Counted from the stretch's first letter, positions 9,755 to 49,618 are shown. The stretch is DNA of 64,000 nt from an uncultured Bacteroidota bacterium (GCA_900696575.1 CAADHD010000025.1:85753-149752), one strand, 5' to 3'. Program-made: numbers and translations. Notes: a model not told the origin generated them from the sequence alone.

Positions 9755-9898
9755 ATTTTTTTTGAGTTAAAACTTATCTGGTGAGTGGTGTGCTTTGTTC
9801 GAAATAAGAATGATAGTTCTGAACGGGGTTTTTAGAGTCAGGAACTTTTAGTCAGTCATTTTTTATCTTCCATCTAAATACTCTGTACTGAGAACTGC

Positions 9899-10828: not shown

Positions 10829-11474
10829 AATTAATGATGTGGCTTACGGATTCTTCAATAGATTGTTGCTGGGTATTAACTTCAATTTCGGGATTTAAGG
10901 GAGGCTCATAAGGTGAACTAATCCCGGTAAAATCTTTTATTTCTCCGGCTCTTGCTTTTTTATAAAGACCTTTAGTATCGCGCTGCTCGCAGACTTCAAG
11001 AGGGCAGTTGACATATACTTCAATAAAATCCTTGTCTTTCATTATGGAACGTACCATGGTTCTGTCTTCACGGAATGGCGATATAAAAGCAGTAAGCGTT
11101 ACAATTCCGGCATCGTTAAAAAGTTTGGCTACTTCCCCAATTCTGCGGATGTTTTCCTTACGGCCTGCTTCGCTAAAATCAACATTGCTGTTCAGCCCAT
11201 GGCGGATGTTATCGCCATCAAGCAGGTAAGTATGAATTCCCATAGCAGCCAATTTTTCCTCTACGGCTCCGGCAATTGTACTTTTTCCCGAACCGGAAAG
11301 GCCTGTAAACCAAACCACACAACTGCGGTGGCCGTTTAGCTTTTCACGGTCCTTTCGCGTAATTTTATGATGATGATAAACAATGTTCAAACGCTCTCTC
11401 TTTTTCGGTTCGTTACTAACGAGGTGCGAAGGTACATAAATGGAGGTTACCATGTTTGAATTCTGCAATTTCAA
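10806..11474 (-). CDS. cysC: adenylyl-sulfate (APS) kinase
   Basis: P-loop [11 protein letters not shown] and the APS kinase fold. It overlaps the cysD start by 23 nt. Confidence 0.9.
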
Positions 11475-11523
11475 TTTTAACTATGGAAAAGAAGCAGTAA
11501 ATCAAATAGAAAATCTATCTTTT

Positions 11524-12012
11524 TTAAATATACTTTTTCTTGACTGCACATCTATCAATCGCCCTTTCATAAACTGCAATAAGGTCGTTATCAAATCCTG
11601 AGAGAATAGCTTTTTTGTAATAAGCTACTGCCTCATCCAGTTTACCCTGTGCCTCATGCAACAGTCCGCTCAGATGATTCACCTTATCCTTTGAAACTCC
11701 GCTTATGGCCGAGGCTTTGTTGATAACGGCATTGAATTCAGCAAAGCGCTCATGCCTGAAAAGCAAATCGGCATAAAACAAATAGGTTTCTGCATAGGAC
11801 GCATCTTTTTCAATGGCGGATGTAAACAACTTTTCGGCTCCGGCATCGTCTTTAAAATAATTTGATTTGATATGCCCCATCCAGGCCAGAGGGATAGCAG
11901 ACGAGTCATCTTCGTGAAAAGATTTTTCAAAATGCTCAAAAGCCTCATCGGGGCGGTTTTCCCTCAATGCTTTTAACCCCTGAAAAATATATGACTCAGC
12001 CTTCAACATCAT
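11524..12012 (-). CDS. TPR-repeat protein
   Basis: Degenerate 34-residue helical repeats recognisable by eye; 162 aa. Confidence 0.5.
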   Translation of the reverse strand: MMLKAESYIFQGLKALRENRPDEAFEHFEKSFHEDDSSAIPLAWMGHIKSNYFKDDAGAEKLFTSAIEKDASYAETYLFYADLLFRHERFAEFNAVINKASAISGVSKDKVNHLSGLLHEAQGKLDEAVAYYKKAILSGFDNDLIAVYERAIDRCAVKKKYI

Positions 12013-12066
12013 GCTAAAAATACATTCATGAGTGCCAAACTAATAAAACTATGGGCGAATCAGCGC

Positions 12067-13647
12067 TTAAGCCTTGCCACCTTCATTATCTAAAGGGTGA
12101 AAATGAGCCTTTACGGATATGAACAGGGACATGAAAAACATAACGAACGTAATTCCTGCCTGGGTTTCGAGGGTATCTTCGGTCAAAAAACTAAGGGCAG
12201 AAATGGATAGAAAAATGCAGAACAGAACAGATGGATTCCTGAATTTTAAAACGGGATAGAAAAATGTCAACAGAAAATACAGTAAACCGCCAATGCCGAA
12301 TGTTAATGCAATAGTGAGGTACTGGTTATGTGCTCTCAGCCGCCAACGTTCATCCAGCGAAGAATCAAGTTCAATATACTTTTCATGAAATGCTTTTTTC
12401 ACATCGCCTGTTCCTGTTCCGATAAGCCAATGGTCTTTAAAAATAGACCATCCGGCTTTCCAAAATTCAAACCGCTGCACCAGCGAACTTCCGGATGGGT
12501 TTTTTCCTGATTGATACAGTTTAATTTCAGCCAAGGTTTTATGAATCCTAATCATCAAACTTCCTTTCTGATTATAGTTCACATTGGCAATTCCGTTTTC
12601 AATGCCGGCAATATCTTTTTCAGCAAGCGCTTTAACGCCTTCTGCATCTTTTCTTAATCCTTTTGAAGCCAGGTATCTTAACAAAGTGTATTTCAGTTCA
12701 TGTCCTTGTTTATCGAGGCCGTTGTAAGGCAGATGACTGCGTTTAGCCCACTCCTCTTTCAATTCTGGTTCGCAGATATAAATGTAAACCGGTGTGCTGT
12801 TTTCCATTTCATCGCAATCAAAACAATGCTGATATTCGTTTCCGTTTTTGGTTTTTTCTTCTTTATTAATGTTTGAATAATCAAATGGATGATAAGACTG
12901 CTGATACCTCTGAAAAAGAAAACAACCGGTATAAACAGTGAAAAATAACAGAAAGGATAATCCGACAATACCGGTTTTATAGTATCTGTACTTAAACAGC
13001 AGCATTGCAGAAAAAATAAACAGGCAGGCTAAAAGAATAATCATGCCGGTCATACTTTCCAGGATAAAAAGGAAAGCAATAAACCAAAGGGCAAGCATTG
13101 CATCGGCAATGACGAAAGCATAGTTCTTTTTTTGATGATGATTTCTGATAAACCAAAGCAGCAGAAAAAAAGAAAACACTACGCAGAGAGAAAGCCTGAT
13201 GTGAGAAATAAAAATCGAAATCTGGCGGATGTCGGTAATCTCCTTTTTATAAGGAATTATTTCAAGCCAAATTCCGGTACTGATAAAGGTTGAAACGGCC
13301 GTAGCCATTACAAAAACTTTAAAAACCGTCAGGTAATATTTTCTGATAAGGGCAGGAAAGGAGGACAAAAGAAAAGGAAGCAGCAGCAATGGCAATTTTA
13401 TTCTGAGATCATTGGCCAGGTAAACGGTATCGCTGCTCCAAAGCGAGCCTAAAAGATGCAGGCCGTAGAATCCGCACCAAAGCAATGAGGCCTTGTTCGA
13501 ATAAAAAAGTTTCAGTTTGGTTCTGTAATCTTTGTCAAGAAGCCAGGCACCAGCCATGATAAACTGCGCAAGGCTCATTCCAAACACCGAAAGCGGAATG
13601 GAAGCAGCCATCAACAGCATTCCGAATAGAAAAAGTTTGCGGGGCAT
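12067..13647 (-). CDS. O-antigen ligase / Wzy_C-family polytopic membrane protein
   Basis: Multiple TM helices, a large periplasmic loop and the motif RAHNQYL that matches the Wzy_C signature. Confidence 0.65.
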   Translation of the reverse strand: MPRKLFLFGMLLMAASIPLSVFGMSLAQFIMAGAWLLDKDYRTKLKLFYSNKASLLWCGFYGLHLLGSLWSSDTVYLANDLRIKLPLLLLPFLLSSFPALIRKYYLTVFKVFVMATAVSTFISTGIWLEIIPYKKEITDIRQISIFISHIRLSLCVVFSFFLLLWFIRNHHQKKNYAFVIADAMLALWFIAFLFILESMTGMIILLACLFIFSAMLLFKYRYYKTGIVGLSFLLFFTVYTGCFLFQRYQQSYHPFDYSNINKEEKTKNGNEYQHCFDCDEMENSTPVYIYICEPELKEEWAKRSHLPYNGLDKQGHELKYTLLRYLASKGLRKDAEGVKALAEKDIAGIENGIANVNYNQKGSLMIRIHKTLAEIKLYQSGKNPSGSSLVQRFEFWKAGWSIFKDHWLIGTGTGDVKKAFHEKYIELDSSLDERWRLRAHNQYLTIALTFGIGGLLYFLLTFFYPVLKFRNPSVLFCIFLSISALSFLTEDTLETQAGITFVMFFMSLFISVKAHFHPLDNEGGKA

Positions 13648-13678: not shown

Positions 13679-14164
13679 TCAGTGCTTACTTATTATTTCA
13701 TTCAGCAAGCGGTATAGTTCATCCGCTTTTTGTGTTCCGATAAGATAAACCAAACCGTCATCCGTTAAAATTTTAACAGCATCATTTCCGGTTGAATAAA
13801 ATTTAAGAACGCCTTCGCGGTGAAGATTAAAAACCGGATTGTTAATCTGGTATTGACTGTATTTCTGTTTTTCGACCGAGCGGATATTACTGACAGGAAT
13901 TATCACATTGCGCGCTACTCCTACTCCTTTCAGTTGAATCATTTCACCGGTTACCCAGATGCGAATGTGTGTTACAAAAAGAGAAAGAATATGAAACAAT
14001 AATATGGCGCATCCCAGGTAAAAGAAAACATTGCCGTTTAGCTCGCGGTTTTCAGTCCAGTAATAGGCAATAAAACAAAACAGCACGAGCACCAAATTTC
14101 TCGTCATGGTCATACGGTTAAAACCGATGTGCTGCTTTTCTTCAAACAGAATTTTGTCTTTCAT
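13679..14164 (-). CDS. hypothetical membrane protein
   Basis: Two predicted TM helices followed by a soluble domain. It overlaps the tilS stop by 4 nt, suggesting co-transcription. Confidence 0.35.
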   Translation of the reverse strand: MKDKILFEEKQHIGFNRMTMTRNLVLVLFCFIAYYWTENRELNGNVFFYLGCAILLFHILSLFVTHIRIWVTGEMIQLKGVGVARNVIIPVSNIRSVEKQKYSQYQINNPVFNLHREGVLKFYSTGNDAVKILTDDGLVYLIGTQKADELYRLLNEIISKH

Positions 14165-15534
14165 TCCTTTTCAAAAACGATTTCGATGCAAGCGGAAGTA
14201 TCATCTGTGATTCTGAATGCATGTTCCTGTCTTATACCGGTTACCCAAACAATGCGGTCTCCGGAAACCAGCAGCCAGATATTTTCTTTTGCCGCAGCTG
14301 ATAGCTTTAAATCAGTAAACAGATCACTTAGTTTTTTCCGGCCTTTCATTCCCAAAGGATGAAACTCATCTCCTTTTTGCCATTTACGCAAAATGAGCGG
14401 ATACTTCAATTTTGAAGCATCAATCCAGATTACATTCGGATCGGTATATCCGCCTGATATAATTTTTTCTTTCAGGTCGTAAGTCAAATGAATTTTACGG
14501 AATGCCAGCGAACCGGCTTCCCAACTGAACTGATGCCAGTCTTCCTGTATTTCGTACTGATTAGCCGTTTTAGCTTTTGCTGATTTTGCCATAAGGTATT
14601 GTCTGTCGGTTATGAGTTCATAGATTTGAGAAAAAAATTTTTTTCCGGGCGGTGAATGAAGCGAGCGGTAAATATCGAAACAAGTCTGCCTGTTGAATCC
14701 ATAGGGATGCAAAAATTCAAAAGTTAAGGTAAATCCGGCAGGATGGTTAACTAAAAAATCGCGGTCAAAAAATACCATGTTCTTTTCTGTTTTTACATGC
14801 TTTGCCCTAAGCATTTCTACATATTCATTGTAAAGGATGGCAGCGCCCTGCATGTTTTCAATATGCCTTTCTATCACTTGCCGGTACGAGGGGCTAATCA
14901 TGTCAAGCACTGGCATTAAATGATGACGAATGCGGTTTCTTAAATAATGGTCTCCTGCATTGGAAGAATCTTCCCTCCAGTCAATTTTTTTCTCACGGGC
15001 ATAATCTTCAATTTCACTTCGCAAGGCAAACAGCAATGGCCTTACAATGTTACCCTGCTTAACAGCAATGCCTGCTTCACCGGCAATACCCGTTCCCCGG
15101 AGCAAATGAATAAAAAACGTTTCGGCATTGTCATCGGCATGATGGGCTGTAGCGCAGTAATCATAACCATGCCTTTTGCACAACTCCGAAAAGAATAAGT
15201 AACGTAAGTGGCGCGCTGCAGCCTGTATGGATAAATTATGTTTTTTGGCATACTGAGCTGTGTCAAACTTTTTGACATAGGTTTCGGCTTTCAGATACTT
15301 TGCTTCCCTGCGGACAAACTTTTCATCATACATACTTTCCTCTCCTCTTAACTGAAAATTGCAGTGCACTACGGCAAAAGGAAATCCGGCCCGGTGGTAC
15401 AAATGCATCATGACCATGCTGTCCAATCCTCCACTGATGGCTAATAAGGTAGGTTTACGTTTTGCAACCAAATCTCTTCTATTGATAAACTCTTCAAATT
15501 TTGCCTCTAACGGGTGCCTTGATTTGCCTTTCAT
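14161..15534 (-). CDS. tilS: tRNA(Ile)-lysidine synthetase
   Basis: PP-loop SGGLDSMV, with the ATP-pyrophosphatase fold and a TilS C-terminal domain. Confidence 0.85.
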   Translation of the reverse strand: MKGKSRHPLEAKFEEFINRRDLVAKRKPTLLAISGGLDSMVMMHLYHRAGFPFAVVHCNFQLRGEESMYDEKFVRREAKYLKAETYVKKFDTAQYAKKHNLSIQAAARHLRYLFFSELCKRHGYDYCATAHHADDNAETFFIHLLRGTGIAGEAGIAVKQGNIVRPLLFALRSEIEDYAREKKIDWREDSSNAGDHYLRNRIRHHLMPVLDMISPSYRQVIERHIENMQGAAILYNEYVEMLRAKHVKTEKNMVFFDRDFLVNHPAGFTLTFEFLHPYGFNRQTCFDIYRSLHSPPGKKFFSQIYELITDRQYLMAKSAKAKTANQYEIQEDWHQFSWEAGSLAFRKIHLTYDLKEKIISGGYTDPNVIWIDASKLKYPLILRKWQKGDEFHPLGMKGRKKLSDLFTDLKLSAAAKENIWLLVSGDRIVWVTGIRQEHAFRITDDTSACIEIVFEKE

Positions 15535-15800
15535 TTCAGCAACGAAGATAAAATAATTTCAGCCGGCTCAGGCAGGCACCCCTCTTGCGCGCGTTTATAA
15601 CGCGTGCCGTTTTCAATCCAAATAAGCAACCATTTCCGTTAAAAAACATTTTGATAACTATCATTTCTACTTTTCTCACAAAATAATAACTTTCCTATTT
15701 TCGGCATAATTATTTTGGGAAATTTACGCGCCCGTAATCTGAAACCAAACTTCGCCCCAATCGTTTTAATTCTGTCTTCCCGTCAAATTTCCAACCAATA

Positions 15801-18800
15801 ATGGCTACTTCCTTAACTGCCAAACAAAAAGACATGCTCGAACGGTTTAACCATACCGATGTCAGCTTTCCGGATTTAACCCTTGCTGCCCTTTTCAATC
15901 TTCAGGTTATTTCAACTCCCGGAGCGGAAGCAGTACGTTACCACCAACATTCGCTTACTTATTCTCAACTGAATCAGAAAGCAAACCGGTTAGCACATTT
16001 TTTAAGAAGAAAAGGAGCCGGGCGAAATGAGTATATCGGCCTATGTGTTGACCGCTCCCTGGAAATGGCATGGAGCATTTTGGGTATCCTTAAATCAGGT
16101 GCTGCTTATGTTCCGTTTGATGCCTTTTATCCAATGGAAAGAATTAGCTACATGATTCGCCAGTCGGACATCAAAACCGTAATGGTTCAGAAAGAATATA
16201 CCTCGCTCTTCAACAGTTCAGGAATTGAGGTAATCACTTTTGAAGAGCTTGATGATTTGTTGAAAAACGAAAACCCGGAAAATCCGCAGGTAATCAATCA
16301 GCCTGACGATGCCGCTTATGTGCTTTTTACATCCGGCTCTACCGGTAATCCTAAAGGGGTGGAGATGATTCACAGGGCACTGATTAATCTTCTGCATTGG
16401 CAAAACACAAAAACCACCTTAGGTACAAAAGCCGTTACGCTTCAGTTTGCTCCCGTAAGTTTTGATGTTTCATTTCAGGAATTTTTTTCCACGTGGACAA
16501 CAGGCGGCTGTATTGTCATGATAGATGATGATTTCCGTTTGAATGCTGTCAAACTTTTGCATTTCATCGAAGATCAGAAAATTGAAAGATTATTTCTTCC
16601 ATTCATTGCCCTGCAGTATCTGGCTCAGGTAGCTGTTGAAAGTAACATTTTTCCAAAGTGTTTGAAAGATGTCATCACAGCCGGTGAGCAACTGCGCATT
16701 ACGGCTGCCATCCGGAAGTTTTTTACTGAGTTGCCGCATACTAAACTTCACAACCATTATGGCCCTACAGAAACACATGTTATCACTGCTTTCACTTTGC
16801 CTGTTGATGTTTCCCGATGGACAGAATTACCCCCTATAGGCACACCCATTTCAAACACTAAAATTTTTTTACTGAATGATGCCATGCTTCCGGTTGAAAT
16901 TGGTGAAGAAGGCGAACTCTATGCAGCGGGTGAAGCGCTGGCGCGCGGTTATATTCACGCAGAGGAATTGACCAATGAGCGGTTTCTGAAAAATCCGTTT
17001 GGCGAAGGAAGAATTTACAAGACAGGCGACCTGGCCCGTTATCTGCCCGATGGCAACATTGAATACTTAGGCCGTGCCGATGGACAAGTAAAAGTACGCG
17101 GATACCGTATTGAACTGGCTGAAGTTGAATCAGCCGTTGAAAAATGGCAAGACGTAAAACAGGCCGTTGCCATTGTGCGTGAAGATGAGCCGGGCAATAA
17201 AAAATTGGCTGTGTATGTGAGGATGAAAGAAGAAAAAAATTTCAGTCCGGCTAAAATCCGTTCACACCTGAAAGCCATTCTGCCTGATTACATGATATCA
17301 TCATTCATTGTTCAGGTAAATGATTTCCCGAGAACACCCAGCGGAAAAATTGATAAACGTTCGCTGCCGAAACCTGATAATAAACGCCCCGATCTTGGCA
17401 ATGTATTTATGGAGCCGGCAAGTGATCTACAGAAACTGTTAGCCGCACTCTGGTGCGATTTGCTCGGAATTGACCATGCCGGAACGGAAGATAATTTCTT
17501 CGACCTTGGAGGAAATTCTCTGCTTGCACTCCAAATGATTGCCCGATTGAAAACAGAACATGGCTATGATTTGCCGGTCGTAAAACTTTACCGGCATCCT
17601 ACCATCAAAGGCATTGAAAAAGATTTATCCGGAAATGATTCAGAATCCTTTTATGATAAAGCCCATGCACGGCTGAAAAAAGAAAAAGTTCCTGCAGAAA
17701 TTAAATCGGTGGAAGACGGTATTGCCATCATCGGCATGGCCGGCAAATTTCCGGGAGCAAAAAATACGGATGAGCTATGGCAGATTCTTGAACAGGGAAA
17801 AGAAACCACAAAGTTTTTCAGCAAGGAAGAATTAGACAGCACTATTCCTGAGGAAATAAAAAATGATCCCTCCTATGTGGCTGCACGCGGAGTAATTGAT
17901 GATTCCGACAAGTTTGATGCAGCCTTCTTCGGTATGAATCCCAAAGTGGCTGAGCTGATGGATCCGCAGCAACGAGTCATGCTTGAAACAGCCTGGGCTG
18001 CACTGGAAAATTCCGGATATACTGCCGATAAATTTCAAGGGCTTATTGGCGTTTTTGCCGGTATGGGTAATAACACATATTTTACACACAATGTTCTTTC
18101 CGATAAAGAAGCCATTGAACGGGTAGGTTCATTTCTGGTGATGACAGCCAATGAGAAAGATTACATTGCTACGCGCATTGCGCATGAGATGAACCTTAAA
18201 GGTCCTGCCATTAGTATTCATACTGGTTGTTCGACTTCGCTTGTTGCTGTGGCTTCTGCCTTTGAGAGTTTGTTAAACCATAAATGCGATATGGCTTTAG
18301 CAGGCGGAGTGTCCATTACCTCGCCTGTAAACAGCGGGCATTTATATAACGAAGGCGGTATGTTTTCTTCTGATGGCCATACCCGCCCGTTTGATGCCAA
18401 AGCCACCGGCACTGTGTTCAGCGATGGCTGTGGTGTGGTGGTTATGAAACGTTACAGCGATGCCGTACACGATGGCGATACCATTCATGCCGTTATCCGT
18501 GGTGCTGCATTGAATAATGACGGTGCGGAGAAAGCCAGTTTTACTGCACCCAGTGTGGAAGGCCAGGCTATGGTTGTTGCCATGGCGCAGGCTCAGGCAG
18601 GCATTGAACCCGATTCAATTACTTATATTGAAACGCATGGAACTGCAACTCCTCTTGGCGATCCTATCGAAGTGGAAGCGCTCACCCTTGCTTTCAGGGA
18701 TAAAACCGATAAAAAACAATTCTGTGCAATTGGTTCCGTAAAAAGCAATTTCGGGCATCTTACTCCTGCTGCCGGTGTAACCGGTCTGATTAAAACAGTG

Positions 18801-21800
18801 CTGGCCATGAGGAATAAAAAAATTCCGGCCACACTGCACTTCTGTTCTCCTAATCCGGCTATTGATTTTGAAAACAGCCCGTTTTATGTAAATAATAAAC
18901 TGATTGACTGGAAAACCGATGACATTCCGCGAAGGGCTGGAATCAGTTCTTTTGGCGTAGGCGGAACCAATGTGCATGTGATTGTGGAAGAACCCCCCGA
19001 ACAGCGGCCCTCGGGCATTGCAAGTAGCAGGCATCTGATGCTGATTTCGGCCAAAACAGAAAATGCATTGGAAGAATCAACTTCCAATCTTAAAACTTAT
19101 TTATCCGGTAATCCCGGAATCAATCTGGCTGATGCTGCTTATACTCTTCAAACCGGAAGAAAACATTTCCATCACCGTAGGTTTCTAGTATGCAGTAATC
19201 ACCAGTTTGATACTATCACTCCAAAAAATTCAGGTAGCAGAAAATTAGAATCACCGGCCACGGGCGTAGTATTTATGTTTCCCGGTCAGGGCTCGCAGTA
19301 TGCCGGCATGGGACAGAATCTTTACCGCGATGAAATGGTTTTTAAACATGCCGTTGATCAATGTGCCGCTCAGTTCGAAAAGCATCTGAAACGCGACATA
19401 CGCCAAATACTTTTTCCTTCACCTGAAAAAGTATCAGAAGCGGATCAACTCATCAAAGAAACCGTTTATACACAGTCCACACTTTTCACCATAGGGTATG
19501 CATTATCCGAATTATGGATGAGTTGGGGAATGAAACCTTCAGCGCTCATCGGCCACAGTATTGGCGAGTATGCAGCCGCCTGCATTGCCGGAATCATGTC
19601 GCTTGAAGATGCCTGTTTCCTGGTAGCCCATCGCGGAAGCATGATGCAAAGCATGCCACCGGGAAGTATGCTCAGCGTTAGGGCTGCCCATGCTGAAGTG
19701 GAAAAACATCTTAGCCCTAAACTTTCCATTGCCGCCATTAACGGGCCGGAACTCTGTGTGGTGGCAGGTGAATCTTCAGAAGTTGAAAAACTGCAAACCG
19801 AACTGGAGAAAAAAGAAATCGTCTGCAAATTGCTGGCTACCTCTCATGCTTTTCATTCGGTAATGATGGAGCCTGTGGTAATACCCTTTGAAGAAAAAGT
19901 AAGAAGCATAAAATTAAATGAGCCTCAAATTCCGGTTTTTTCAACTGTTACGGCCAACCTGATGAAGCCCGAAGAAGCAACCGATGCCTCATACTGGAGT
20001 AACCAGATACGTAAGCCTGTTCGTTTTGCCGAAGGCATTCAAACCATCTGGAAAGCACATCCGGGTTATGTAATGCTTGAACTTGGCCCGCGTAATACGG
20101 CCACTACCATGGCGCGGCAGCAAAGTGCCGACCCTAAAAAACAAATTGCCATTCCTTCGCTTGGAGATACCAGCCTGAACGATGCCGAATGGGAATCCAT
20201 GTTTTCAGCCATTGGGCAATTGTGGCTTTGCGGATTGGAAATAAACTGGCAGAACTTTTATGCGTTAGAAACCAGAAATCGTGTTCCGCTGCCTACTTAT
20301 CCGTTTGAAAGAAAACGATACTGGAAAGATGTTTTTCCGGAAAAACAACAACCTTCAATGCAACCGGTGCCCGCACCTACCGTTTTAACCACACCTGAAA
20401 TCAATTATCCTGTTCAAAAAATTATTACCTCACAAGAAAATACTGCCATGACAAACAGAAAAGAAAGGCTGATGGCCGAATTAAAAGATATGTTTGAAGA
20501 TGCATCAGGAATTGACATGAAAAATGCAAACCCCGATGTTTCCTTCCTCGAAATAGGTCTTGATTCATTATTTCTGACTCAATCTGCATTAAGTATTTCC
20601 AAACGATATGGAGTTAAAGTTACCTTCCGTCAATTGAATGACGACTTAAGTTCACTTTCTGCTCTTACTTCTTATCTGGATAATAAACTTCCGGCCGAAG
20701 CATCCACACCCCCTTCCTCTTCAGCAACCACACAGCCACCCTCTTCGCTTTTATCCGTTAACGTCCCTCCGTCCTTACCGCCCGGCACCTCCAATCTTAA
20801 CCTGTTCATGATGCAGCAAATGCAGATGATGCAGATGATGATGCAACAGATGATGCAGCAAAACACACCACAGCCGGTTGCCCCTTCAGTGCAGGCTCAC
20901 ATTGAAAAAAGCGTGGAAATAAAATCGCATACCAAAAAAGAAGACATTACGGAAAACGAAAAAGCTGATCTGGCAAAACCTTTTGGCGCTATTGCCCGCA
21001 TTGAAAAATCAGGCCATGCAGAACTGACCGAAACCCAGAAAAAATGGCTGAGCGATTTCTTGGATAAATACATCAGCAAAACCAAAAAATCAAAGACCTA
21101 CTGTCAGGAATACCGATCCTGGCTGGCCGACCCGCGCGTGGTAACCGGTTTTAAACCTGCCTTAAAAGAAATCATTTATCAGGTAGTAGTCAACAAATCA
21201 AAAGGGGTTAAGATGTGGGATCTGGATGGCAATGAATATGTAGATGTTTTAAATGGTTTCGGAAGCAATTTCTTCGGATGGGGCTGCGATGTGCTGTTGA
21301 ATGTTTGGAAAAAGCAATTGGAAGAAGGCGTTGAACTGGGCCCGCAGACTCCGCTGGCTGGCGAATGCGCCAGGCTGATTTGCGAGCTAACCGGCTACGA
21401 CCGCGCTGGTTTCTGCAACACAGGCAGCGAAGCTGTGCTGGGTGCCATGCGCATTGCGCGTACTGTAACCGGTAAGAACCTGATTGTATGTTTTAACGGC
21501 TCTTATCACGGAATCAATGATGAGGTAATTGTAAGGGGAACAAAGTCCCTGAAATCATTTCCTGCTGCTGCCGGTATTCCGAAAGAAAGCGTGCAGAATA
21601 TGCTCGTTCTTGATTACGGAACCAAAGAATCGCTCGACATCATTAAAGAGCGTATTGACGAGATAGCGGCTGTGTTGATAGAACCGATTCAAAGCCGCAG
21701 GGCTTATTTTCATCCTCGTGAATTCATACATGATGTAAGAAAAGTTACCCAGGAGAATGGAGTACTGATGATTTTTGATGAAGTGATAACCGGTTTCCGT

Positions 21801-22532
21801 TTACGTCTTGGCGGAGCTCAGGAATACTACAATGTAAAAGCTGACCTGAGTACTTACGGAAAAGTAATCGGAGGCAACATGCCCATTGGCGCTATCGCAG
21901 GTCGCAGGGAATTTATGGATGCTTTAGATGGTGGCTTCTGGCAGTTTGGAGATAACTCGGTTCCCGAAGTAGGGGTTACATATTTTGCCGGAACATTTGT
22001 CCGTCATCCTTTAGCCATGGCTGCCATGAAAGAAGTTTTATTGTACCTCAAAAGAGAAGGCAAGCCGCTGTACGAAAAACTGAATGCAAAAACACTTCGC
22101 CTGACCGAAGAAGTAAACGCACATTCAAAACAGTTGGGTTCTCCTTTCAAATTAGTAACCTTCGGTTCGTTATTTAAAGGTAAATGGGAAACAGAACCGC
22201 AGTTCACTGAATTGTTATTTGCCTTAATGCGTTACAAAGGTGTACACATAATGGATGGATTCCCTTGCTTCTTAACCCTGGCTTATACTGATGCTGATGT
22301 TGATTTTGTAATTAAATGTTTCAAAGAATCATTGAGCGAACTCTGTTCACTGGGTTTCATTCCAACAGCGAAAGCAAATGGAATTTCATCAAACGGTTCA
22401 ACCGGACACGCAAATGCCCAAACCATGCCTCCCGTTCCTGGAGCTAAGCTTGGTAAAGATGCCAATGGCAAGCCTGCCTGGTTTATTCCTGACCCGGAAA
22501 GGCCCGGTAAGTATATGCAGGTGATGAAATAA
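15801..22532 (+). CDS. hybrid NRPS-PKS megasynthase. The domain order is adenylation (aa 25-525), PCP (Ser573), ketosynthase (aa 640-1065, Cys810), malonyl-specific acyltransferase (aa 1155-1450, Ser1253), ACP (Ser1589), an M/Q-rich linker, then a class-III (GSA-like) aminotransferase (aa 1770-2180, Lys2021).
   Basis: A motifs LFTSGSTGNPKG (A3), FDVSF (A4, Asp present), NHYGPTE (A5), YKTGDLARY (A7), GRADGQVKVRGYRIELAEVE (A8), PSGKIDK (A10). PCP has GGNSL. KS has HTGCSTS, ETHGTATPLGDP and NFGHL. AT has GQGSQ, GHSIGE and HAFHS. ACP has GLDSL. The aminotransferase has DEVITGFR and the PLP-lysine motif YGKVIGGN. Catalytic residues were verified at nt 17517, 18228, 19557, 20565 and 21861. Confidence 0.9.
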   Translation: MATSLTAKQKDMLERFNHTDVSFPDLTLAALFNLQVISTPGAEAVRYHQHSLTYSQLNQKANRLAHFLRRKGAGRNEYIGLCVDRSLEMAWSILGILKSGAAYVPFDAFYPMERISYMIRQSDIKTVMVQKEYTSLFNSSGIEVITFEELDDLLKNENPENPQVINQPDDAAYVLFTSGSTGNPKGVEMIHRALINLLHWQNTKTTLGTKAVTLQFAPVSFDVSFQEFFSTWTTGGCIVMIDDDFRLNAVKLLHFIEDQKIERLFLPFIALQYLAQVAVESNIFPKCLKDVITAGEQLRITAAIRKFFTELPHTKLHNHYGPTETHVITAFTLPVDVSRWTELPPIGTPISNTKIFLLNDAMLPVEIGEEGELYAAGEALARGYIHAEELTNERFLKNPFGEGRIYKTGDLARYLPDGNIEYLGRADGQVKVRGYRIELAEVESAVEKWQDVKQAVAIVREDEPGNKKLAVYVRMKEEKNFSPAKIRSHLKAILPDYMISSFIVQVNDFPRTPSGKIDKRSLPKPDNKRPDLGNVFMEPASDLQKLLAALWCDLLGIDHAGTEDNFFDLGGNSLLALQMIARLKTEHGYDLPVVKLYRHPTIKGIEKDLSGNDSESFYDKAHARLKKEKVPAEIKSVEDGIAIIGMAGKFPGAKNTDELWQILEQGKETTKFFSKEELDSTIPEEIKNDPSYVAARGVIDDSDKFDAAFFGMNPKVAELMDPQQRVMLETAWAALENSGYTADKFQGLIGVFAGMGNNTYFTHNVLSDKEAIERVGSFLVMTANEKDYIATRIAHEMNLKGPAISIHTGCSTSLVAVASAFESLLNHKCDMALAGGVSITSPVNSGHLYNEGGMFSSDGHTRPFDAKATGTVFSDGCGVVVMKRYSDAVHDGDTIHAVIRGAALNNDGAEKASFTAPSVEGQAMVVAMAQAQAGIEPDSITYIETHGTATPLGDPIEVEALTLAFRDKTDKKQFCAIGSVKSNFGHLTPAAGVTGLIKTVLAMRNKKIPATLHFCSPNPAIDFENSPFYVNNKLIDWKTDDIPRRAGISSFGVGGTNVHVIVEEPPEQRPSGIASSRHLMLISAKTENALEESTSNLKTYLSGNPGINLADAAYTLQTGRKHFHHRRFLVCSNHQFDTITPKNSGSRKLESPATGVVFMFPGQGSQYAGMGQNLYRDEMVFKHAVDQCAAQFEKHLKRDIRQILFPSPEKVSEADQLIKETVYTQSTLFTIGYALSELWMSWGMKPSALIGHSIGEYAAACIAGIMSLEDACFLVAHRGSMMQSMPPGSMLSVRAAHAEVEKHLSPKLSIAAINGPELCVVAGESSEVEKLQTELEKKEIVCKLLATSHAFHSVMMEPVVIPFEEKVRSIKLNEPQIPVFSTVTANLMKPEEATDASYWSNQIRKPVRFAEGIQTIWKAHPGYVMLELGPRNTATTMARQQSADPKKQIAIPSLGDTSLNDAEWESMFSAIGQLWLCGLEINWQNFYALETRNRVPLPTYPFERKRYWKDVFPEKQQPSMQPVPAPTVLTTPEINYPVQKIITSQENTAMTNRKERLMAELKDMFEDASGIDMKNANPDVSFLEIGLDSLFLTQSALSISKRYGVKVTFRQLNDDLSSLSALTSYLDNKLPAEASTPPSSSATTQPPSSLLSVNVPPSLPPGTSNLNLFMMQQMQMMQMMMQQMMQQNTPQPVAPSVQAHIEKSVEIKSHTKKEDITENEKADLAKPFGAIARIEKSGHAELTETQKKWLSDFLDKYISKTKKSKTYCQEYRSWLADPRVVTGFKPALKEIIYQVVVNKSKGVKMWDLDGNEYVDVLNGFGSNFFGWGCDVLLNVWKKQLEEGVELGPQTPLAGECARLICELTGYDRAGFCNTGSEAVLGAMRIARTVTGKNLIVCFNGSYHGINDEVIVRGTKSLKSFPAAAGIPKESVQNMLVLDYGTKESLDIIKERIDEIAAVLIEPIQSRRAYFHPREFIHDVRKVTQENGVLMIFDEVITGFRLRLGGAQEYYNVKADLSTYGKVIGGNMPIGAIAGRREFMDALDGGFWQFGDNSVPEVGVTYFAGTFVRHPLAMAAMKEVLLYLKREGKPLYEKLNAKTLRLTEEVNAHSKQLGSPFKLVTFGSLFKGKWETEPQFTELLFALMRYKGVHIMDGFPCFLTLAYTDADVDFVIKCFKESLSELCSLGFIPTAKANGISSNGSTGHANAQTMPPVPGAKLGKDANGKPAWFIPDPERPGKYMQVMK

Positions 22533-22764: not shown

Positions 22765-23781
22765 ATGACCTTAGCCACCGGAAACAACACTGTTATGACC
22801 GACATAAAAGAAATCAATGAGCGCATTCATCATGAGAGCGCATTTGTGGAAATTCTGCACCTTGAAGTAGGAAAAAAAATCATCGGACAACGTTACATGC
22901 TCGACCGCCTGCTCATTGGCTTGCTGGCTAACGGCCATCTGCTTCTTGAAGGCGTTCCCGGCCTTGCAAAAACATTGGCCATCAAATCGCTTTCATCAGC
23001 CATTGATGCCCGTTTCAGCCGCATTCAATTTACTCCTGATTTGCTTCCTGCCGACTTAATCGGCACCATGATTTACAACCAGCGCAAAGAAGAATTTACA
23101 GTGAGAAAAGGCCCCATCTTCGCTAACTTTATTCTGGCTGATGAAATAAACCGCGCCCCCGCTAAAGTACAGAGCGCTTTGCTCGAAGCCATGCAGGAAA
23201 AGCAGGTAACCATAGGTGAAGAAACTTTTAAACTTGATGAACCTTTTTTAGTTCTTGCAACCCAGAATCCTATTGAACAGGAAGGCACCTATCCTTTACC
23301 AGAAGCTCAGTTAGACCGTTTCATGCTGAAAGTAGTGATAGGCTATCCCAATAAAGAAGAAGAAAAACAAATCATCCGGCAGAATCTTAAATCAGAAGAA
23401 ACTCGCATAAATGCTGTTTTGAAAAAGGAAGATGTGTTGCGCGCGCGCAAGGCATTGCACGATGTGTATATGGATGAAAAGATTGAGCATTACATTCTGG
23501 ATATTGTTTTTGCCACCCGTAATCCCGAAGAGCATAAACTCAGCAAAATCAAAAACCTGATAAGTTATGGCGGATCTCCCCGTGCAAGTATAAATCTGGC
23601 TCTTGCTTCCAAGGCATTTGCGTTCATCAAACGCAGAGGTTATGTAATTCCTGAAGATGTGCGGGCTGTAGCGCATGATGTTTTACGTCACCGTATCGGC
23701 CTCACTTACGAAGCCGAAGCAGAAAATATAACACAGGAGCATATAGTGAGTGAAATTCTGAATGCAGTCGAAGTTCCTTAA
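22765..23781 (+). CDS. MoxR-family AAA+ ATPase
   Basis: Walker A GVPGLAKT, Walker B ILADEINRA and the MoxR C-terminal region. It is the first gene of the aerotolerance operon. Confidence 0.85.
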   Translation: MTLATGNNTVMTDIKEINERIHHESAFVEILHLEVGKKIIGQRYMLDRLLIGLLANGHLLLEGVPGLAKTLAIKSLSSAIDARFSRIQFTPDLLPADLIGTMIYNQRKEEFTVRKGPIFANFILADEINRAPAKVQSALLEAMQEKQVTIGEETFKLDEPFLVLATQNPIEQEGTYPLPEAQLDRFMLKVVIGYPNKEEEKQIIRQNLKSEETRINAVLKKEDVLRARKALHDVYMDEKIEHYILDIVFATRNPEEHKLSKIKNLISYGGSPRASINLALASKAFAFIKRRGYVIPEDVRAVAHDVLRHRIGLTYEAEAENITQEHIVSEILNAVEVP

Positions 23782-23822
23782 TGGTTTGAAAACCCATTAG
23801 CTTGAAATTATTCCTTGCCTGA

Positions 23823-24707
23823 ATGCACAACATGGAAACAACAGACTTACTCAGAAAAGTCCGCAAGATTGAGATTAAGACAAGGGGATTGTCGAGTCAG
23901 ATATTTTCGGGCGAGTATCACTCTGCTTTTAAAGGCCGCGGTATGGCATTCAGTGAAGTAAGGGAGTACATGCCCGGTGATGATATCCGCAGTATTGACT
24001 GGAATGTAACAGCCCGTTTCAATCATCCTTATGTAAAAGTATTTGAAGAAGAAAGGGAGTTAACCGTAATGCTGCTGGTGGACGTAAGCGGCTCGGGTTC
24101 TTTCGGTACACGAAAGCAGTTAAAGCGTGATCTGATTACCGAACTCTGTGCTGTGCTTTCATTCTCCGCCATTCAGAATAATGATAAAGCCGGTGTGATT
24201 TTTTTTAGCGATAAAATTGAATTGTTCATTCCTCCCAAAAAAGGAAAGACACACATTCTGCGCATTATCCGTGAACTGATCAACCTCGAACCCGAATCGC
24301 ACGGAACTGATCTCGGTATGGCATTGCGTTATTTCACCAACATGATTAAAAAACGAAGCATCGCTTTTGTCATTTCCGATTTCAAAAGTAAAAATTTTGA
24401 AGACTCCCTTAAAATAGCTTCACGAAAACACGATACCGTAGCTATTCGCATTGCTGACCGCCATGAAAAACATTTACCGGATGTTGGCTTAGTCAGAATG
24501 CAGGATGCCGAAACCGGCCAATTCCGGTGGGTGGATACATCCAGCGCTGCCGTAAGACTCAGGTTTGAACAGTGGAACAGAACATACACCGCTCAGCTCG
24601 AATCTATGTTTAACCGCAGTGGCATTGACCACACTGTTATAGAAACAGGTATGAATTACGTTACTCCGTTAATCAATCTTTTTAAAGCGCGCGAACGAAG
24701 ATTTTAA
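23823..24707 (+). CDS. DUF58 domain protein (vWA-like partner of MoxR)
   Basis: The DUF58 core sequence VREYMPGDDIRSIDWNVTAR. Confidence 0.8.
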   Translation: MHNMETTDLLRKVRKIEIKTRGLSSQIFSGEYHSAFKGRGMAFSEVREYMPGDDIRSIDWNVTARFNHPYVKVFEEERELTVMLLVDVSGSGSFGTRKQLKRDLITELCAVLSFSAIQNNDKAGVIFFSDKIELFIPPKKGKTHILRIIRELINLEPESHGTDLGMALRYFTNMIKKRSIAFVISDFKSKNFEDSLKIASRKHDTVAIRIADRHEKHLPDVGLVRMQDAETGQFRWVDTSSAAVRLRFEQWNRTYTAQLESMFNRSGIDHTVIETGMNYVTPLINLFKARERRF

Positions 24708-24710
24708 ATT

Positions 24711-25664
24711 ATGAGGCCGGTACTGCTATTATTCATTCTTATTGTTTCCTTCCGTTCCTTCGGACAGAAAGCGGTTGCCACCCTTGACAGTACCGAAATG
24801 CAGATAGGCCGTCAAATCAACTTGCATCTTGAACTTACTCATCCTAAAGGAAAAACATTTACATGGCCTTCCCTGCCCGATTCGATTCAGAAAATCGAAG
24901 TGCTAAAACGCTCGCAGCTTGATACCTCCTTCAGCGCTGACGGTAATGAGCTTACCATTCGCCAATCCATTTTACTTACCTGTTTCGATTCCGGCTATTA
25001 TGCCATTCCTCCATTTCGTTTTACCGATACTGCCAATAAAGATTCATTAACCAATTATTCGGAAACGGCTCCGCTGCTGCTCTCTGTTTTTACGGTTGAA
25101 GTAGATACCACTGCCTCTATCAAGGACATCAAGCCCGTCATTGAAATGCCCCTGACATGGAAAGATTTTGTTCCCTATGCTGCCGGTGTATTGGCGCTTG
25201 GCCTGGCAGTTTTTATTGGCATACTTCTTTACCGGAAGTTTAAAAAGAAACCGGTTATGGCTGAAAAGAAAATTCCTTCGCTCCCTGCCCATGAAATTGC
25301 CTTAAAGTCATTGGCGCAACTCGAAGAGAAAAAGCTTTGGCAGCAGGGTCAGATAAAATCTTACTACACCGAACTTACCGACATTTTGCGAATCTACCTT
25401 GACCATCGCTGGCAGATGAATGCCATGGAAATGACTTCAGATGAAATTCTGCAGTATCCTGTTGTTTACAAGTTAGATGATTCAGTCAAAAACAGGCTGC
25501 GATACATTTTCACCATTGGCGACCTGGTCAAGTTTGCCAAAATGATAACAGTACCTCACGAAAACGAACAGTGCATGATGAATGCCTATGAATTTGTTAA
25601 TGCAACTGCTCATAAAACATTAGCAGATGGAAATTCTGTAAGAAAGGAGGAAATGGCAGTATGA
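24711..25664 (+). CDS. hypothetical membrane protein of the Bat operon
   Basis: Signal peptide plus a central TM helix. Its position between DUF58 and batA matches the Bacteroides bat operon architecture. Confidence 0.5.
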   Translation: MRPVLLLFILIVSFRSFGQKAVATLDSTEMQIGRQINLHLELTHPKGKTFTWPSLPDSIQKIEVLKRSQLDTSFSADGNELTIRQSILLTCFDSGYYAIPPFRFTDTANKDSLTNYSETAPLLLSVFTVEVDTTASIKDIKPVIEMPLTWKDFVPYAAGVLALGLAVFIGILLYRKFKKKPVMAEKKIPSLPAHEIALKSLAQLEEKKLWQQGQIKSYYTELTDILRIYLDHRWQMNAMEMTSDEILQYPVVYKLDDSVKNRLRYIFTIGDLVKFAKMITVPHENEQCMMNAYEFVNATAHKTLADGNSVRKEEMAV

Positions 25665-26656
25665 TGCACGATATTGTATTTGCACAACCCGGTTACTTCT
25701 GGCTGCTGCTGCTCATTCCGGTTATGATTGCTTATGAATTTCTTGTAGCAAGAAAAAAAAGACCGCAGATAATTTATTCCGACCTTGAACCCTTTGAAAA
25801 AAAACCGTTGACTTTCAGAGAACGATTTGTGAATACTCCGTTGTTTTTACGCTCTGTTGCTGTTGCTTTGATTATCGCAGCACTTGCGCGGCCGCAGTCA
25901 TCATCAAAAAGCACCAGCGTAACTACTGAAGGAATTGCCATTATGCTGGCTATGGACCTTTCAAGCTCCATGTTAGCCGAAGATTTAAAACCCAACCGGG
26001 TTGAAGCGGCCAGAAAAACAGCTATTGATTTTGTTGATGCACGAACAAATGACATGATTGGCCTCGTGATTTTCAGCGGTGAATCGTTTACCCAATGTCC
26101 GTTAACAAGCGACCATGCCGTGTTAAAAAACATGATTGCCAAAATGAAAAGCGGAATGCTGCTTGACGGAACCGCTATTGGCGAAGGATTGGCAACTGCC
26201 ATTTCACGGCTCAAAGACAGTCCTGCAAAAAGTAAAGTCATCATTCTTTTAACTGACGGAGTAAACAATGCAGGCGCTATTGCTCCGGTTACTGCCGGAG
26301 AGATTGCAAAGTCCTTCGGTATTCGTGTTTATACTATCGGAGTCGGCAAGCAGGGCATGGCTCCCTACCCGGTGAAAACTCCATTCGGCATTCAATATGT
26401 AAACCAGGAAGTACAGATTGACGAAGACATCATGAAACAGATTTCATCGGCTACCGATGCCAAATACTTCCGCGCTACCGACAATAAAAGTTTGAAAAAC
26501 ATTTATGCAGAAATTGACAAACTGGAAAAGACCAAGGTGGAAGTTTCGGAATACAAACGATACAGCGAAGAATACCTGCCATGGTTGTTGGCAGCCGGTT
26601 TGTTTCTTCTATTGGAAATGGTTTTACGCTACACTTTATTCAGAACATTGCCATGA
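25661..26656 (+). CDS. batA: aerotolerance protein BatA (vWA domain)
   Basis: Two N-terminal TM helices and a vWA MIDAS motif DLSSSM. Confidence 0.8.
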   Translation: MMHDIVFAQPGYFWLLLLIPVMIAYEFLVARKKRPQIIYSDLEPFEKKPLTFRERFVNTPLFLRSVAVALIIAALARPQSSSKSTSVTTEGIAIMLAMDLSSSMLAEDLKPNRVEAARKTAIDFVDARTNDMIGLVIFSGESFTQCPLTSDHAVLKNMIAKMKSGMLLDGTAIGEGLATAISRLKDSPAKSKVIILLTDGVNNAGAIAPVTAGEIAKSFGIRVYTIGVGKQGMAPYPVKTPFGIQYVNQEVQIDEDIMKQISSATDAKYFRATDNKSLKNIYAEIDKLEKTKVEVSEYKRYSEEYLPWLLAAGLFLLLEMVLRYTLFRTLP

Positions 26657-27699
26657 TACGCTTTGCAAATCCCGAATTCCTGTGGCTGCTGGCCGTGATT
26701 CCCGCTATGACATTCATTTTTATTTTAATGCTATGGTGGAGAAAACGGGCATTAAAAAGATGGAGCGATACTGAATTACTTGGAAATCTGATACCGACAA
26801 AATCCTCTGTAAAACCTGTTATTCGGTTTGTGCTGCTGATGCTGGCATCGGCTTCCATAATACTTGCCATTGCCCGTCCGCAAATAGGAACAAAGATGGA
26901 AGAAGTAAAACGCAAAGGCTCTGACATCATGATTTGCCTGGATGTAAGCAATTCCATGAATGCAGAAGATATACGCCCTACCAGACTGGAGCGCAGCAAG
27001 CAGGCAATTTACCGCATGATTGAAAAATTGCGGGGAGACAGAATCGGATTAATTGTGTTTGCCGGTCAGGCTTATGTACAGTTGCCCATTACTACCGATT
27101 ACAGCGCTGCCAAACTTTTTCTTTCTACCGTCAGTACCGATATGGTACCCACACAGGGAACTGCCATTGGTGCAGCCATTGACCTTGCCATGGAAAGCAT
27201 TAATGACTCCATAGGAAAGAATACCACTTTTGTAATTATTACCGATGGAGAAAGTCATGAAGACAATCCGGTTGAGAGTGCAAAAGCAGCCGCTGAAAAA
27301 GGAATTGTAATTCATACCATTGGCATGGGGTCGCCCGAAGGGGCACCCATTCCGGTTTATCGAAACGGAATACGTACGGGGTTTATGCAAGATAATTCGG
27401 GAAGTACGGTAATCACCAAAATGAATCCGGTAGCCCTTAGCGAAATTGCAGAAGCCGGCAGAGGAAAATTTGTACAGGCCAGTAATTCGGATGACGGATT
27501 AGACATTATCCTTAAAGAAATCAACGAAATGGAAAAGAAAGAGCTTGGCACTTTGCTTTATACTGATTACGAAGAACAGTATCAGTACTTTATACTGTTT
27601 GCATTGTTATTTCTGATGATGGAGTTTTTGATGAACGAACGCAGAAGCCGCTGGATTGAAAAATTAAAATCAATAGCCGAATACAGAAAAGCCGCATGA
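26653..27699 (+). CDS. batB: aerotolerance protein BatB (vWA domain)
   Basis: Start placed at the ATG that overlaps the batA stop (ATGA). The track's upstream Met at 26581 lies inside batA. MIDAS motif DVSNSM. Confidence 0.8.
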   Translation: MIRFANPEFLWLLAVIPAMTFIFILMLWWRKRALKRWSDTELLGNLIPTKSSVKPVIRFVLLMLASASIILAIARPQIGTKMEEVKRKGSDIMICLDVSNSMNAEDIRPTRLERSKQAIYRMIEKLRGDRIGLIVFAGQAYVQLPITTDYSAAKLFLSTVSTDMVPTQGTAIGAAIDLAMESINDSIGKNTTFVIITDGESHEDNPVESAKAAAEKGIVIHTIGMGSPEGAPIPVYRNGIRTGFMQDNSGSTVITKMNPVALSEIAEAGRGKFVQASNSDDGLDIILKEINEMEKKELGTLLYTDYEEQYQYFILFALLFLMMEFLMNERRSRWIEKLKSIAEYRKAA

Positions 27700-42272: not shown

Positions 42273-42354
42273 AAAATAAAGATTGCCTGCTATTATATTT
42301 TTCACGTATTTTGCTGACGAACCGATTATTATTAAAACTTCAAATTCAACTTTT

Positions 42355-49398: not shown

Positions 49399-49618
49399 TT
49401 CAGAACAACTGTGAAACGAATCAGAAATGTTGTTTTAAATAGGATTTTTAACAGAGTTACTAACCTGCCATTAAAACATTTGCAGGACTGTAAAATCACC
49501 TTTGTATTTTATTGATTTAAACCCATTCCTGACCTTTTTGATTTATTGTTGCCATAAGTTCTGATTTGAATCATTATTACAATTGTATTTTTCAGCTTAC
49601 TTTGGGCATTCATTAAAT

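Follow-up and report, generated by a model that had tools for sequence, protein, structure and literature searches.

A 64-kb stretch of DNA from an uncultured Bacteroidota bacterium (GCA_900696575.1 CAADHD010000025.1:85753-149752), hereafter the window, carries a megasynthase gene between tilS and the moxR-bat genes. All coordinates are counted from the first letter of the window and are collected in Table 1. The encoded protein of 2243 amino acids (aa) joins nonribosomal peptide synthetase (NRPS) and polyketide synthase (PKS) domains in the order adenylation (A), thiolation (T), ketosynthase (KS), acyltransferase (AT), acyl carrier protein (ACP), and aminotransferase (AMT). An initial annotation had described it as an orphan without a release domain, one that ends its own assembly line and must release its product noncanonically. 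Our results point in another direction. The megasynthase is very probably subunit 1 of a two-subunit NRPS-PKS-NRPS line whose genes have become separated in this lineage, the second subunit being a protein with condensation (C), A, T, and thioesterase (TE) domains. The impression of an orphan would thus reflect the boundary of the window together with the splitting, in this lineage, of a common gene cluster of canonical logic.

Domain architecture of the megasynthase

The domain order was recovered from Pfam matches, sequence motifs, and an intact open reading frame (ORF), in agreement with the initial annotation. The catalytic motifs are complete and have been kept in 20 relatives, the most distant of which are about 53% identical. 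They include GGNS in T, the Cys/His/His residues of KS, GHSIGE and HAFH in AT, GLDS in ACP, and Lys2021 in AMT, the invariant lysine for pyridoxal phosphate (PLP). When the megasynthase was compared with Pfam and NCBIfam at E<=0.1, there were zero matches to Condensation, Thioesterase, NAD_binding_4, or heterocyclization families, the C-terminal tail and linkers included, and the earlier statement that the polypeptide has no C, TE, reductase (R), or heterocyclization (Cy) domain holds. At the same threshold, there were also zero Pfam matches to ketoreductase (KR), dehydratase (DH), or enoylreductase (ER) domains, so that a beta-keto thioester would be presented to the AMT. A terminal domain that cleaves thioesters (R, TE, or alpha-oxoamine synthase) was not found; the sole C-terminal Pfam match was to Aminotran_3, with none to Aminotran_1_2.

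The A domain scored 401 bits against TIGR01733 (cutoff, 317 bits) and has Asp at code position 235. Its 10-residue specificity code is D-V-Q-F-I-A-H-V-I-K, and most close relatives carry DVQF/YIAHVVK. We take the Stachelhaus code for proline to be DVQLIAHVVK and hence count DVQFIAHVIK as proline type. In addition, the best single solved relative is the proline-activating module 1 of TycB (440 bits). Judged from these features, the starter domain is a true amino-acid adenylation domain with a proline-type code. A glycine starter, taken from the top PDB match (LgrA, 626 bits), was rejected, this score being the total for a pair of A domains (304 + 321 bits). At the other end of the protein, the AMT scored 407 bits (E=1.4e-120) against the solved AMT of MycA (6KFM) and at most 199 bits against any HemL or glutamate-1-semialdehyde aminomutase. 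Homology assigns the aminotransferase specifically to the MycA type, and the resemblance of the KS-AT-ACP-AMT part to MycA, already noticed in the initial annotation, is confirmed.

A run made up only of Met and Gln (FMMQQMQMMQMMMQQMMQQ) lies inside the variable linker between ACP and AMT (aa 1669-1687, window 20805..20861). Relatives are Q-rich at this position, with a different sequence.

A conserved tail and a partner peptide

The final 35 residues of the megasynthase (PPVPGAKLGK…PAWFIPDPERPGKY; also PPVPGAKLGKDANGKPAWFIPDPERPGKY...) had been overlooked, and they are not featureless. They constitute a conserved C-terminal mini-domain with ten residues that are invariant across the family (P2210, P2211, A2215, G2218, G2223, W2227, P2232, R2234, G2236, and K2237), and the 23 residues preceding it are variable. 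AlphaFold2 (AF2), applied to an alignment of the AMT plus tail, predicted a confident AMT core, a disordered tether, and three short beta strands in the tail. Specifically, the predicted local distance difference test score (pLDDT) fell below 50 in the tether (construct residues 472-485, corresponding to protein residues 2193-2206) and reached 76-79 in the tail. The alignment with 6KFM ends at about residue 2189, and aa 2186-2243 were matched by no Pfam or NCBIfam family at E<=0.1, docking-domain families included.

The distribution of the tail follows the way in which the assembly line is divided. A strict tail pattern was matched by 104 of the 109 proteins that end after the AMT. In all four fused forms (P0072, P0073, P0075, and P0079), by contrast, the tail is missing and the C domain begins straight after the AMT; these forms are also without the DFDPF peptide that marks separate partners. 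Each of the 69 separate partners carries a (V/I)DF(D/N)PF(A/S)G peptide 8-25 aa from its N-terminus, just ahead of the C domain, and a strict regular expression for this peptide matched 65 of the 69, compared with 50 of 2121 background ORFs. Furthermore, a profile of the tail retrieved 492 representatives from a library of 1.84 billion proteins. It was almost always located at the extreme C-terminus, in proteins of about 1.6 thousand aa (KS-AT-ACP-AMT) or about 2.1-2.6 thousand aa.

Tail and peptide co-occur only at split junctions and vanish together when the subunits are fused, and in this respect they behave like a docking pair. We observed the co-occurrence of the terminal motifs directly, and it suggests physical docking. 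On the basis of these patterns, the tail and the (V/I)DF(D/N)PF peptide look like a putative docking pair, and a role of the tail as a docking element is the best-supported inference of our analysis.

Distribution among bacterial genomes

Species-representative genomes were searched with the alignment of AMT plus tail, and domains were mapped on the best 80 loci. A homolog search returned more than 100 clusters with the same domain set, and relatives of the megasynthase were present in at least 586 species genomes. Among cultured Bacteroidota, the family was found in Pedobacter, Mucilaginibacter, Parapedobacter, Spirosoma, Hymenobacter, Fibrisoma, Puia, and Flavisolibacter. Outside of this phylum, it was found in Xanthomonadales (Lysobacter, Dyella, and Pseudoxanthomonas), Microcoleus, Burkholderiales, and myxobacteria-like metagenome-assembled genomes. 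With so many genomes, and with a C-A-T-TE gene and a phosphopantetheinyl transferase (PPTase) normally next to it on the downstream side, the gene can no longer be called an orphan, and the many Bacteroidota isolates that carry the family speak against the view that its chemistry is unusual for the group.

Nearly all of the best 80 loci have an A-T-KS-AT-ACP-AMT gene and, usually 3-200 bp after it in the same orientation, a C-A-T-TE gene or a longer NRPS. In about 70 of the 80, the C-A-T-TE gene comes directly after the megasynthase. The commonest accessory gene, present in 42 of these loci at a median of 21 bp past the partner, encodes an Sfp-type PPTase (PF01648/PF22624). The comparison of synteny that had been recommended to locate a conserved partner gene thus places it adjacent to the megasynthase in most of these loci, and at another locus in the window's clade. 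Rarer relatives are fused into a single protein of 3.2-3.5 thousand aa that continues from the AMT into C-A-T(-TE).

Starter codes, compared for the main genes of L006-L085, vary across the family. DVQFMAQVVK occurred 21 times and DVQIFSQVVK 5 times, and others were of proline type (DVQFIAHVVK), Thr-like (DFWNIGMVHK), Val-like (DALWLGGTFK), or Asn-like (DGTKVGEVCK/DLTCIGHIGK). Most partner A domains have a Gly-like code, DIL(Q)LG(M/L/V)IWK. With such varied starters, the family seems to offer a general way of turning alpha-amino acids into 3,4-diamino-acid peptides. Literature searches on the specificity code, architecture, and keywords did not find a characterized product; they yielded a 2013 catalogue entry and an unrelated Collimonas cluster. 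The catalogue lists the A-CP-KS-AT-CP-PLP arrangement of Pedobacter heparinus C6XWU5 in its Table 2, with an antiSMASH prediction of Nrp-Mal-Gly (CP, carrier protein); it also summarizes the role of MycA in beta-amino formation and mentions the PLP domain of prodigiosin (PMC3870968). As for a characterized cluster of identical architecture, a matter raised by the initial annotation, the layout had therefore already been catalogued, and a paper describing its product was not found.

Several variants of the locus are worth recording. In Parapedobacter soli (L084), two full tandem copies of A-T-KS-AT-ACP-AMT-tail (4964-11536 and 11732-18250) lie between other NRPS genes. In Microcoleus (L048 and L057), the starter is a separate protein and the order is C-A-T, KS-AT-ACP-AMT-tail, Cupin_8, and C-A-T-TE; this variant keeps the same tail and partner peptide. 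Polysaccharide genes recur beside clusters of megasynthase, partner, and PPTase in Bacteroidota and in Gamma-, Beta-, and Deltaproteobacteria (L014, L023-L024, L028-L031, L033-L038, L040, L042, L044-L046, L050-L056, L060, L063-L064, L075-L079, and L082). In the flanks we counted GT2 at 21 loci, Bac_transf at 16, a Polysacc_synt (Wzx-type) flippase at 15, a second GT2 at 13, and a Wzz/BcsQ-like kinase at 8. A Cupin_8/JmjC hydroxylase was found in the flanks of 10 loci.

Separation of the two loci in the lineage of the window

In addition to the window, lone megasynthase genes were found at L086 (89% identity, with the same tilS/bat synteny), L001/L006 (71%, between argS and pgm), L087 (68%), and L088 (63%). 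Apart from L086, each lies in a different housekeeping context. The lone genes make up one clade that is nested among partnered lineages; a C-A-T-TE gene is present in both of its sisters, L007 and L089, and in L089 a PPTase as well. There is purifying selection in every domain of the lone clade, and between the window and L086 the overall ratio of nonsynonymous to synonymous divergence (dN/dS) is 0.067 at a dS of about 0.96. Amino acid identity within the clade is 74-88% in the tail versus 37-78% in the tether, and five diverged members have all kept an intact 6.7-kb frame. The lone-clade megasynthase is not decaying but is under strong purifying selection, in line with the earlier judgment that it is not a pseudogene.

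Lineage-specific separation of the two loci in the window's clade was seen directly at L090 to L094. At L090, a 68% relative, a sensor kinase and cargo genes of the type IX secretion system (T9SS) intervene between the megasynthase and its partner, which is 7.5 kb downstream. At L091-L093 and L094, there are loci with partner, docking peptide, and PPTase and no megasynthase nearby.

A partner was also observed in the species of the window itself. There, the 90% cluster of the megasynthase contains P0312, which is 100% identical to the window protein (contig of 325,165 bp), P0306 (contig of 324,937 bp), and P0305 (NCBI MBL7929134.1). The corresponding C-A-T-TE cluster contains P0315 (contig of 325,165 bp) and P0314 (contig of 324,937 bp; NCBI MBL7929164.1), and the accessions of megasynthase and partner, MBL7929134.1 and MBL7929164.1, are 30 apart in a single metagenome-assembled genome. 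The N-terminus of P0314, MSSPDFIPVDFNPFED, contains the docking peptide, and its C domain has the motif HHIIGDG. The same pattern holds for the 89% relative, in which P0303 and P0247 are both on a 206,757-bp scaffold. We infer that the window's species encodes its docking-peptide C-A-T-TE partner, P0314/P0315, on the same contig as the megasynthase. Inside the window, about 33 genes lie downstream of the megasynthase without a partner among them and about 15 lie upstream, so that the partner is most likely located beyond the window's left edge.

These observations bear on two claims of the initial annotation. With a C-A-T-TE protein that has the docking peptide encoded in the same species, the megasynthase no longer appears to end the assembly line, and release by a canonical NRPS termination module is favored over the noncanonical release that had been considered obligatory. 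A trans-acting enzyme encoded elsewhere, which had been offered as one option, is favored by the evidence, but as a canonical module reached via the putative docking pair and not as an exotic release enzyme.

Proposed assembly line and its product

The steps on the enzyme can be outlined from the intact motifs and from homology. The A domain would load a proline-type amino acid onto T, and the AT would load malonyl on the ACP. The KS would then condense the starter with this unit to give 3-oxo-3-(pyrrolidin-2-yl)propanoyl-S-ACP. The MycA-type AMT would convert the beta-keto group to a beta-amine, yielding 3-amino-3-(pyrrolidin-2-yl)propanoyl-S-ACP, a 3,4-diamino-type acyl thioester. Up to this point, the expected chemistry coincides with the beta-keto to beta-amino conversion set out in the initial annotation, which we share on the strength of the motifs and the MycA precedent. 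The chain would then stay bound, and the tethered 35-aa mini-domain would dock on the (V/I)DF(D/N)PF peptide at the N-terminus of the partner. The C-A-T-TE protein acting in trans, which in the window's species would be P0314/P0315, coded outside the 64-kb window, would receive the chain, its C domain would couple a second amino acid with the beta-amino acyl chain, and its TE would free a small peptide. In relatives, a dedicated Sfp-type PPTase is encoded straight after the partner gene. If the substrates are as predicted, the product is likely a small peptide based on a 3,4-diamino acid derived from proline.

The TE of the partner differs between lineages. In 21 partners, all from the lineage of the window or its sisters, Cys serves as the nucleophile (G-L-C-F/Y-G/S), examples being P0314/P0315, L094:10001-14020, L089:16786-20802, and L091:6445-10491, and in 54 others it is Ser (mostly GYSFG); the partner in the window's species has G-L-C-Y-G. 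Thioesterases with a Cys nucleophile are found in ObiF, which makes a beta-lactone, and SulM, which makes a beta-lactam, both small products; the motif in SulM is Gln-Cys-Asn (PMC11298585). We rejected a SulM/ObiF-like TE. The Cys is shared, but the motif here is L-C-Y/F and not Gln-Cys-Asn, the best solved relatives are generic (7DXO and EntF), and SulM and ObiF were absent among the solved relatives listed for the partner TE. The Cys-TE is only a lead as a pointer to release chemistry. A more ambitious proposal can be formulated, namely, that the C-terminal three-strand mini-domain and the N-terminal (V/I)DF(D/N)PF peptide of this family are an undescribed type of docking pair and that the split line of the window's clade, which belongs to uncultured Bacteroidia, with its Cys-thioesterase, makes a new strained-ring or bicyclic metabolite of lactam or lactone type, possibly bioactive, from the proline-derived 3,4-diamino acid. 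Taken as a whole, we consider this proposal unlikely.

Alternative explanations

A number of observations weigh against a two-subunit line or against parts of it. Placement of megasynthase and partner on the same contig rests on the equal sizes of the contigs in base pairs and on neighboring accession numbers. For P0006, which lies on a 2.46-Mb contig (JAIXKF010000005.1), P0012, and P0019, the top 120 matches contained no partner ortholog from the same contig, and some lineages of the lone clade may truly be without a partner. The tail and the partner peptide displayed no clean pairwise covariation when their residues were compared by eye in sequence lists. With respect to substrates, the case for proline consists of the 10-residue code and homology, and the code of the partner A domain in the window's species, about DPFS(L/I)GLYTK, matches no assignable substrate.

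Some of these observations would fit a self-contained enzyme, given that a proline-derived beta-amino thioester could in principle cyclize by itself. The pyrrolidine nitrogen would attack the thioester and close a five-membered lactam, giving 1-aminopyrrolizidin-3-one or pyrrolizidine-1,3-dione by a logic like that of SwnK. Such an enzyme would need no C, TE, or R domain, and none is present in the protein, just as no partner is present in the window. Moreover, lone genes in several lineages have mostly proline-type codes (the window, L006, L012, and L014), and by our own chemical reasoning a starter with a secondary amine eases closure of a gamma-lactam; the three proteins with no detected partner point the same way. 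Yet the window's species and the 89% relative appear to encode a docking-peptide C-A-T-TE on the same contig, the tail is still under selection in the lone clade, and proline-type starters are frequent among clusters with a partner as well (L007, L009, L011, L030, and L076). We therefore regard self-release as quite unlikely.

The tail itself could be read differently, as a structural or regulatory appendage of the AMT, such as a dimer clasp or an active-site lid, with any pairing of subunits taking place via other surfaces. The moderately confident fold prediction and the failure of Pfam docking-domain families to match the tail are compatible with such a role. However, the fused relatives keep a fully conserved AMT without the tail, which is therefore dispensable for the AMT. 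Proteins have or lack the tail in exact correspondence with the next module being separate or fused, and the tail co-occurs with the N-terminal peptide in 69 of 69 partners. A disordered, fast-evolving tether also divides it from the AMT core. An AMT appendage is, in our estimation, very improbable.

Finally, within the family the lone genes represent a derived state, as they would if the gene were a decaying remnant, now functionless, that had lost its partner, but the intact frames, the low dN/dS at that divergence, and the retention of all catalytic motifs leave this explanation with next to no credibility.

Genomic context in the window

The flanking genes are housekeeping genes, as had been reported, and the positions of tilS and the moxR-bat genes confirm it (Table 1). 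The remaining window resembles an ordinary Bacteroidota chromosome, with ftsH, cdsA, a mutase, pyrD, mntR/Nramp, dapB, a thiolase, trmD, nuo genes, and secreted proteins with T9SS tails. In a Pfam scan of about 40 further ORFs of >=150 aa in the window, we found no MbtH, PPTase, type II TE, C domain, or tailoring gene, and the corresponding absences listed in the initial annotation stand. In addition, the motif [VIAL][DENH][FYH][DN]PF was absent from a six-frame translation of the window. A partner concealed within the window was therefore rejected; a candidate of 1465 aa, encoded at 42283..46680, turned out to be an M4 peptidase that carries a T9SS tail, and there was no NRPS or PKS among the approximately 40 ORFs.

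Table 1. Features of the megasynthase locus, in window coordinates
Feature	Coordinates	Strand	Remarks
tilS	14161..15534	-	neighbor of megasynthase
Megasynthase gene, A-T-KS-AT-ACP-AMT-docking tail (predicted)	15801..22532	+	2243 aa, ATG to TAA, zero internal stops
Adenylation domain, aa 38-516	15912..17348	+	Pfam AMP-binding 38-384, AMP-binding_C 441-516; TIGR01733
Thiolation (peptidyl carrier protein) domain, aa 546-606	17436..17618	+	Pfam PP-binding; Ser573 in GGNS
Ketosynthase, aa 640-1014	17718..18842	+	Pfam; Cys810/His946/His986 triad intact; dN/dS 0.038
KS-AT linker, aa 1017-1135	18849..19205	+	KAsynt_C_assoc, CurL-like, RhiE-like linker families
Acyltransferase, aa 1157-1438	19269..20114	+	Pfam; active site GHSIGE; HAFH = malonyl specificity
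ACP, about aa 1560-1625	20478..20675	+	second Pfam PP-binding stretch; Ser1589 in GLDS
Variable ACP-AMT linker	20721..20960	+	low aa identity among relatives
MycA-type class III aminotransferase (by homology) with N-terminal helical extension, aa 1721-2185	20961..22355	+	Pfam Aminotran_3 1794-2150; Lys2021; AF2 model; dN/dS 0.027
Flexible, weakly conserved tether, aa 2186-2208	22356..22424	+	low pLDDT; variable
C-terminal docking tail (predicted), aa 2209-2243, MPPVPGAKLGKDANGKPAWFIPDPERPGKYMQVMK	22425..22529	+	invariant residues; AF2; absent from fused forms
moxR, DUF58, batA-E	22765..31074	+	neighbors of megasynthase

Three secreted proteins in the window have T9SS sorting domains at the C-terminus: the M4 thermolysin-like peptidase, which also has PKD repeats (42283..46680), a multicopper oxidase (49583..51295), and a BD-FAE esterase-like protein (53827..55377). 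They confirm that the host is a T9SS-bearing member of the Bacteroidota. Directly upstream of tilS and the megasynthase, on the minus strand (7671..13647), is a block for the synthesis of 3'-phosphoadenosine 5'-phosphosulfate (PAPS) that the initial annotation had also overlooked. It consists of a cysQ-like gene (7671-8468), cysN (8465-9754), cysD (9899-10828), and cysC (10806-11474), after which come genes for a TPR protein (11524-12012) and for a membrane protein of Wzy_C/O-antigen-ligase type (12067-13647). L086, the 89% relative, has kept the block. Its presence could be a hint of chemistry on sulfated polysaccharides or metabolites, its association with the megasynthase being one of position. 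Scans for sigma-70 promoters and intrinsic terminators around the megasynthase gave counts at the level of chance, with models that exclude Bacteroidota promoters. No tRNA, tmRNA, or Rfam family was found in the window.

Implications and comparison with known systems

Our study illustrates how an apparent orphan megasynthase without a release domain can be the artifact of viewing a single locus, and it may serve as a cautionary example. Automated cluster callers would split or truncate the pathway in the window's clade. Here, a tail of 35 residues sufficed to predict, and then to find, a partner elsewhere in the genome. The megasynthase is not a mechanistic anomaly but a good target for product discovery. 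Soil and freshwater Bacteroidota, like Xanthomonadales, very commonly carry the family. With two proteins and a PPTase it is compact, and its expression should be easy. In addition, the tail and peptide could serve as a portable connector for the engineering of junctions from PKS to NRPS modules.

The closest known relatives of the architecture are MycA and ItuA, of mycosubtilin and iturin biosynthesis, and McyE, of microcystin biosynthesis. All share an unreduced KS-AT-ACP followed by a class III, glutamate-1-semialdehyde aminomutase-like AMT and then an NRPS C domain. In the window's system, that C domain does not follow in cis; it would be supplied in trans, as suggested by its adjacency in most relatives and its presence in the same species. 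Compared with MycA and ItuA, in which a fatty acid starter is introduced by an acyl ligase and the C domain is fused, the starter here would be an amino acid activated by an NRPS A domain, and the C domain would be on a separate protein reached via the putative docking pair. Furthermore, the whole line here would have two or three modules, and its product would accordingly be a small peptide and not a lipopeptide.

A layout identical to that of the megasynthase exists in Pedobacter heparinus C6XWU5 and in numerous uncharacterized orthologues that are named "amino acid adenylation domain-containing protein." The Pedobacter loci have the same tail, and a C-A-T-TE partner and a PPTase lie next to the gene there, whereas in the window's clade both are located elsewhere. 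As starter code, DVQFMAQVVK is usual in Pedobacter-type genomes versus DVQFIAHVIK in the window, and the nucleophile of the partner TE is Ser in the former versus Cys in the window's lineage.

Two other systems resemble the megasynthase in part. RedL and PigH of prodiginine biosynthesis (A-ACP-KS-AT-ACP-PLP) are single polypeptides in which a PLP domain follows a minimal PKS module, as in the window. Their terminal domain is an alpha-oxoamine synthase of the class II fold, which releases the chain by decarboxylative Claisen condensation. In contrast, the terminal domain in the window belongs to the class III transaminases (PF00202), which would not cleave the thioester. The fungal SwnK of swainsonine biosynthesis (A-T-KS-AT-KR-ACP-R) loads a cyclic imino acid and extends it with one malonyl unit on one protein, a likeness in overall logic. 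Unlike the protein in the window, SwnK has a KR and a terminal reductase for aldehyde release and cyclization; we propose that the chain is instead handed to an NRPS module.

Pairing of subunits through short terminal elements at split junctions is familiar from COM helices and from TubB-TubC, in which a beta-hairpin docking domain meets a short linear motif. By its description, the arrangement proposed here is set apart from both, with a folded element at the C-terminus of the upstream protein and a peptide at the N-terminus of the downstream one. Taken together, the sequence comparisons indicate that this family is an uncharacterized variant of the MycA-type PKS-AMT-NRPS theme, distinguished by an amino acid starter, a junction in trans with an undescribed putative docking pair, and, in the clade of the window, a Cys-TE.

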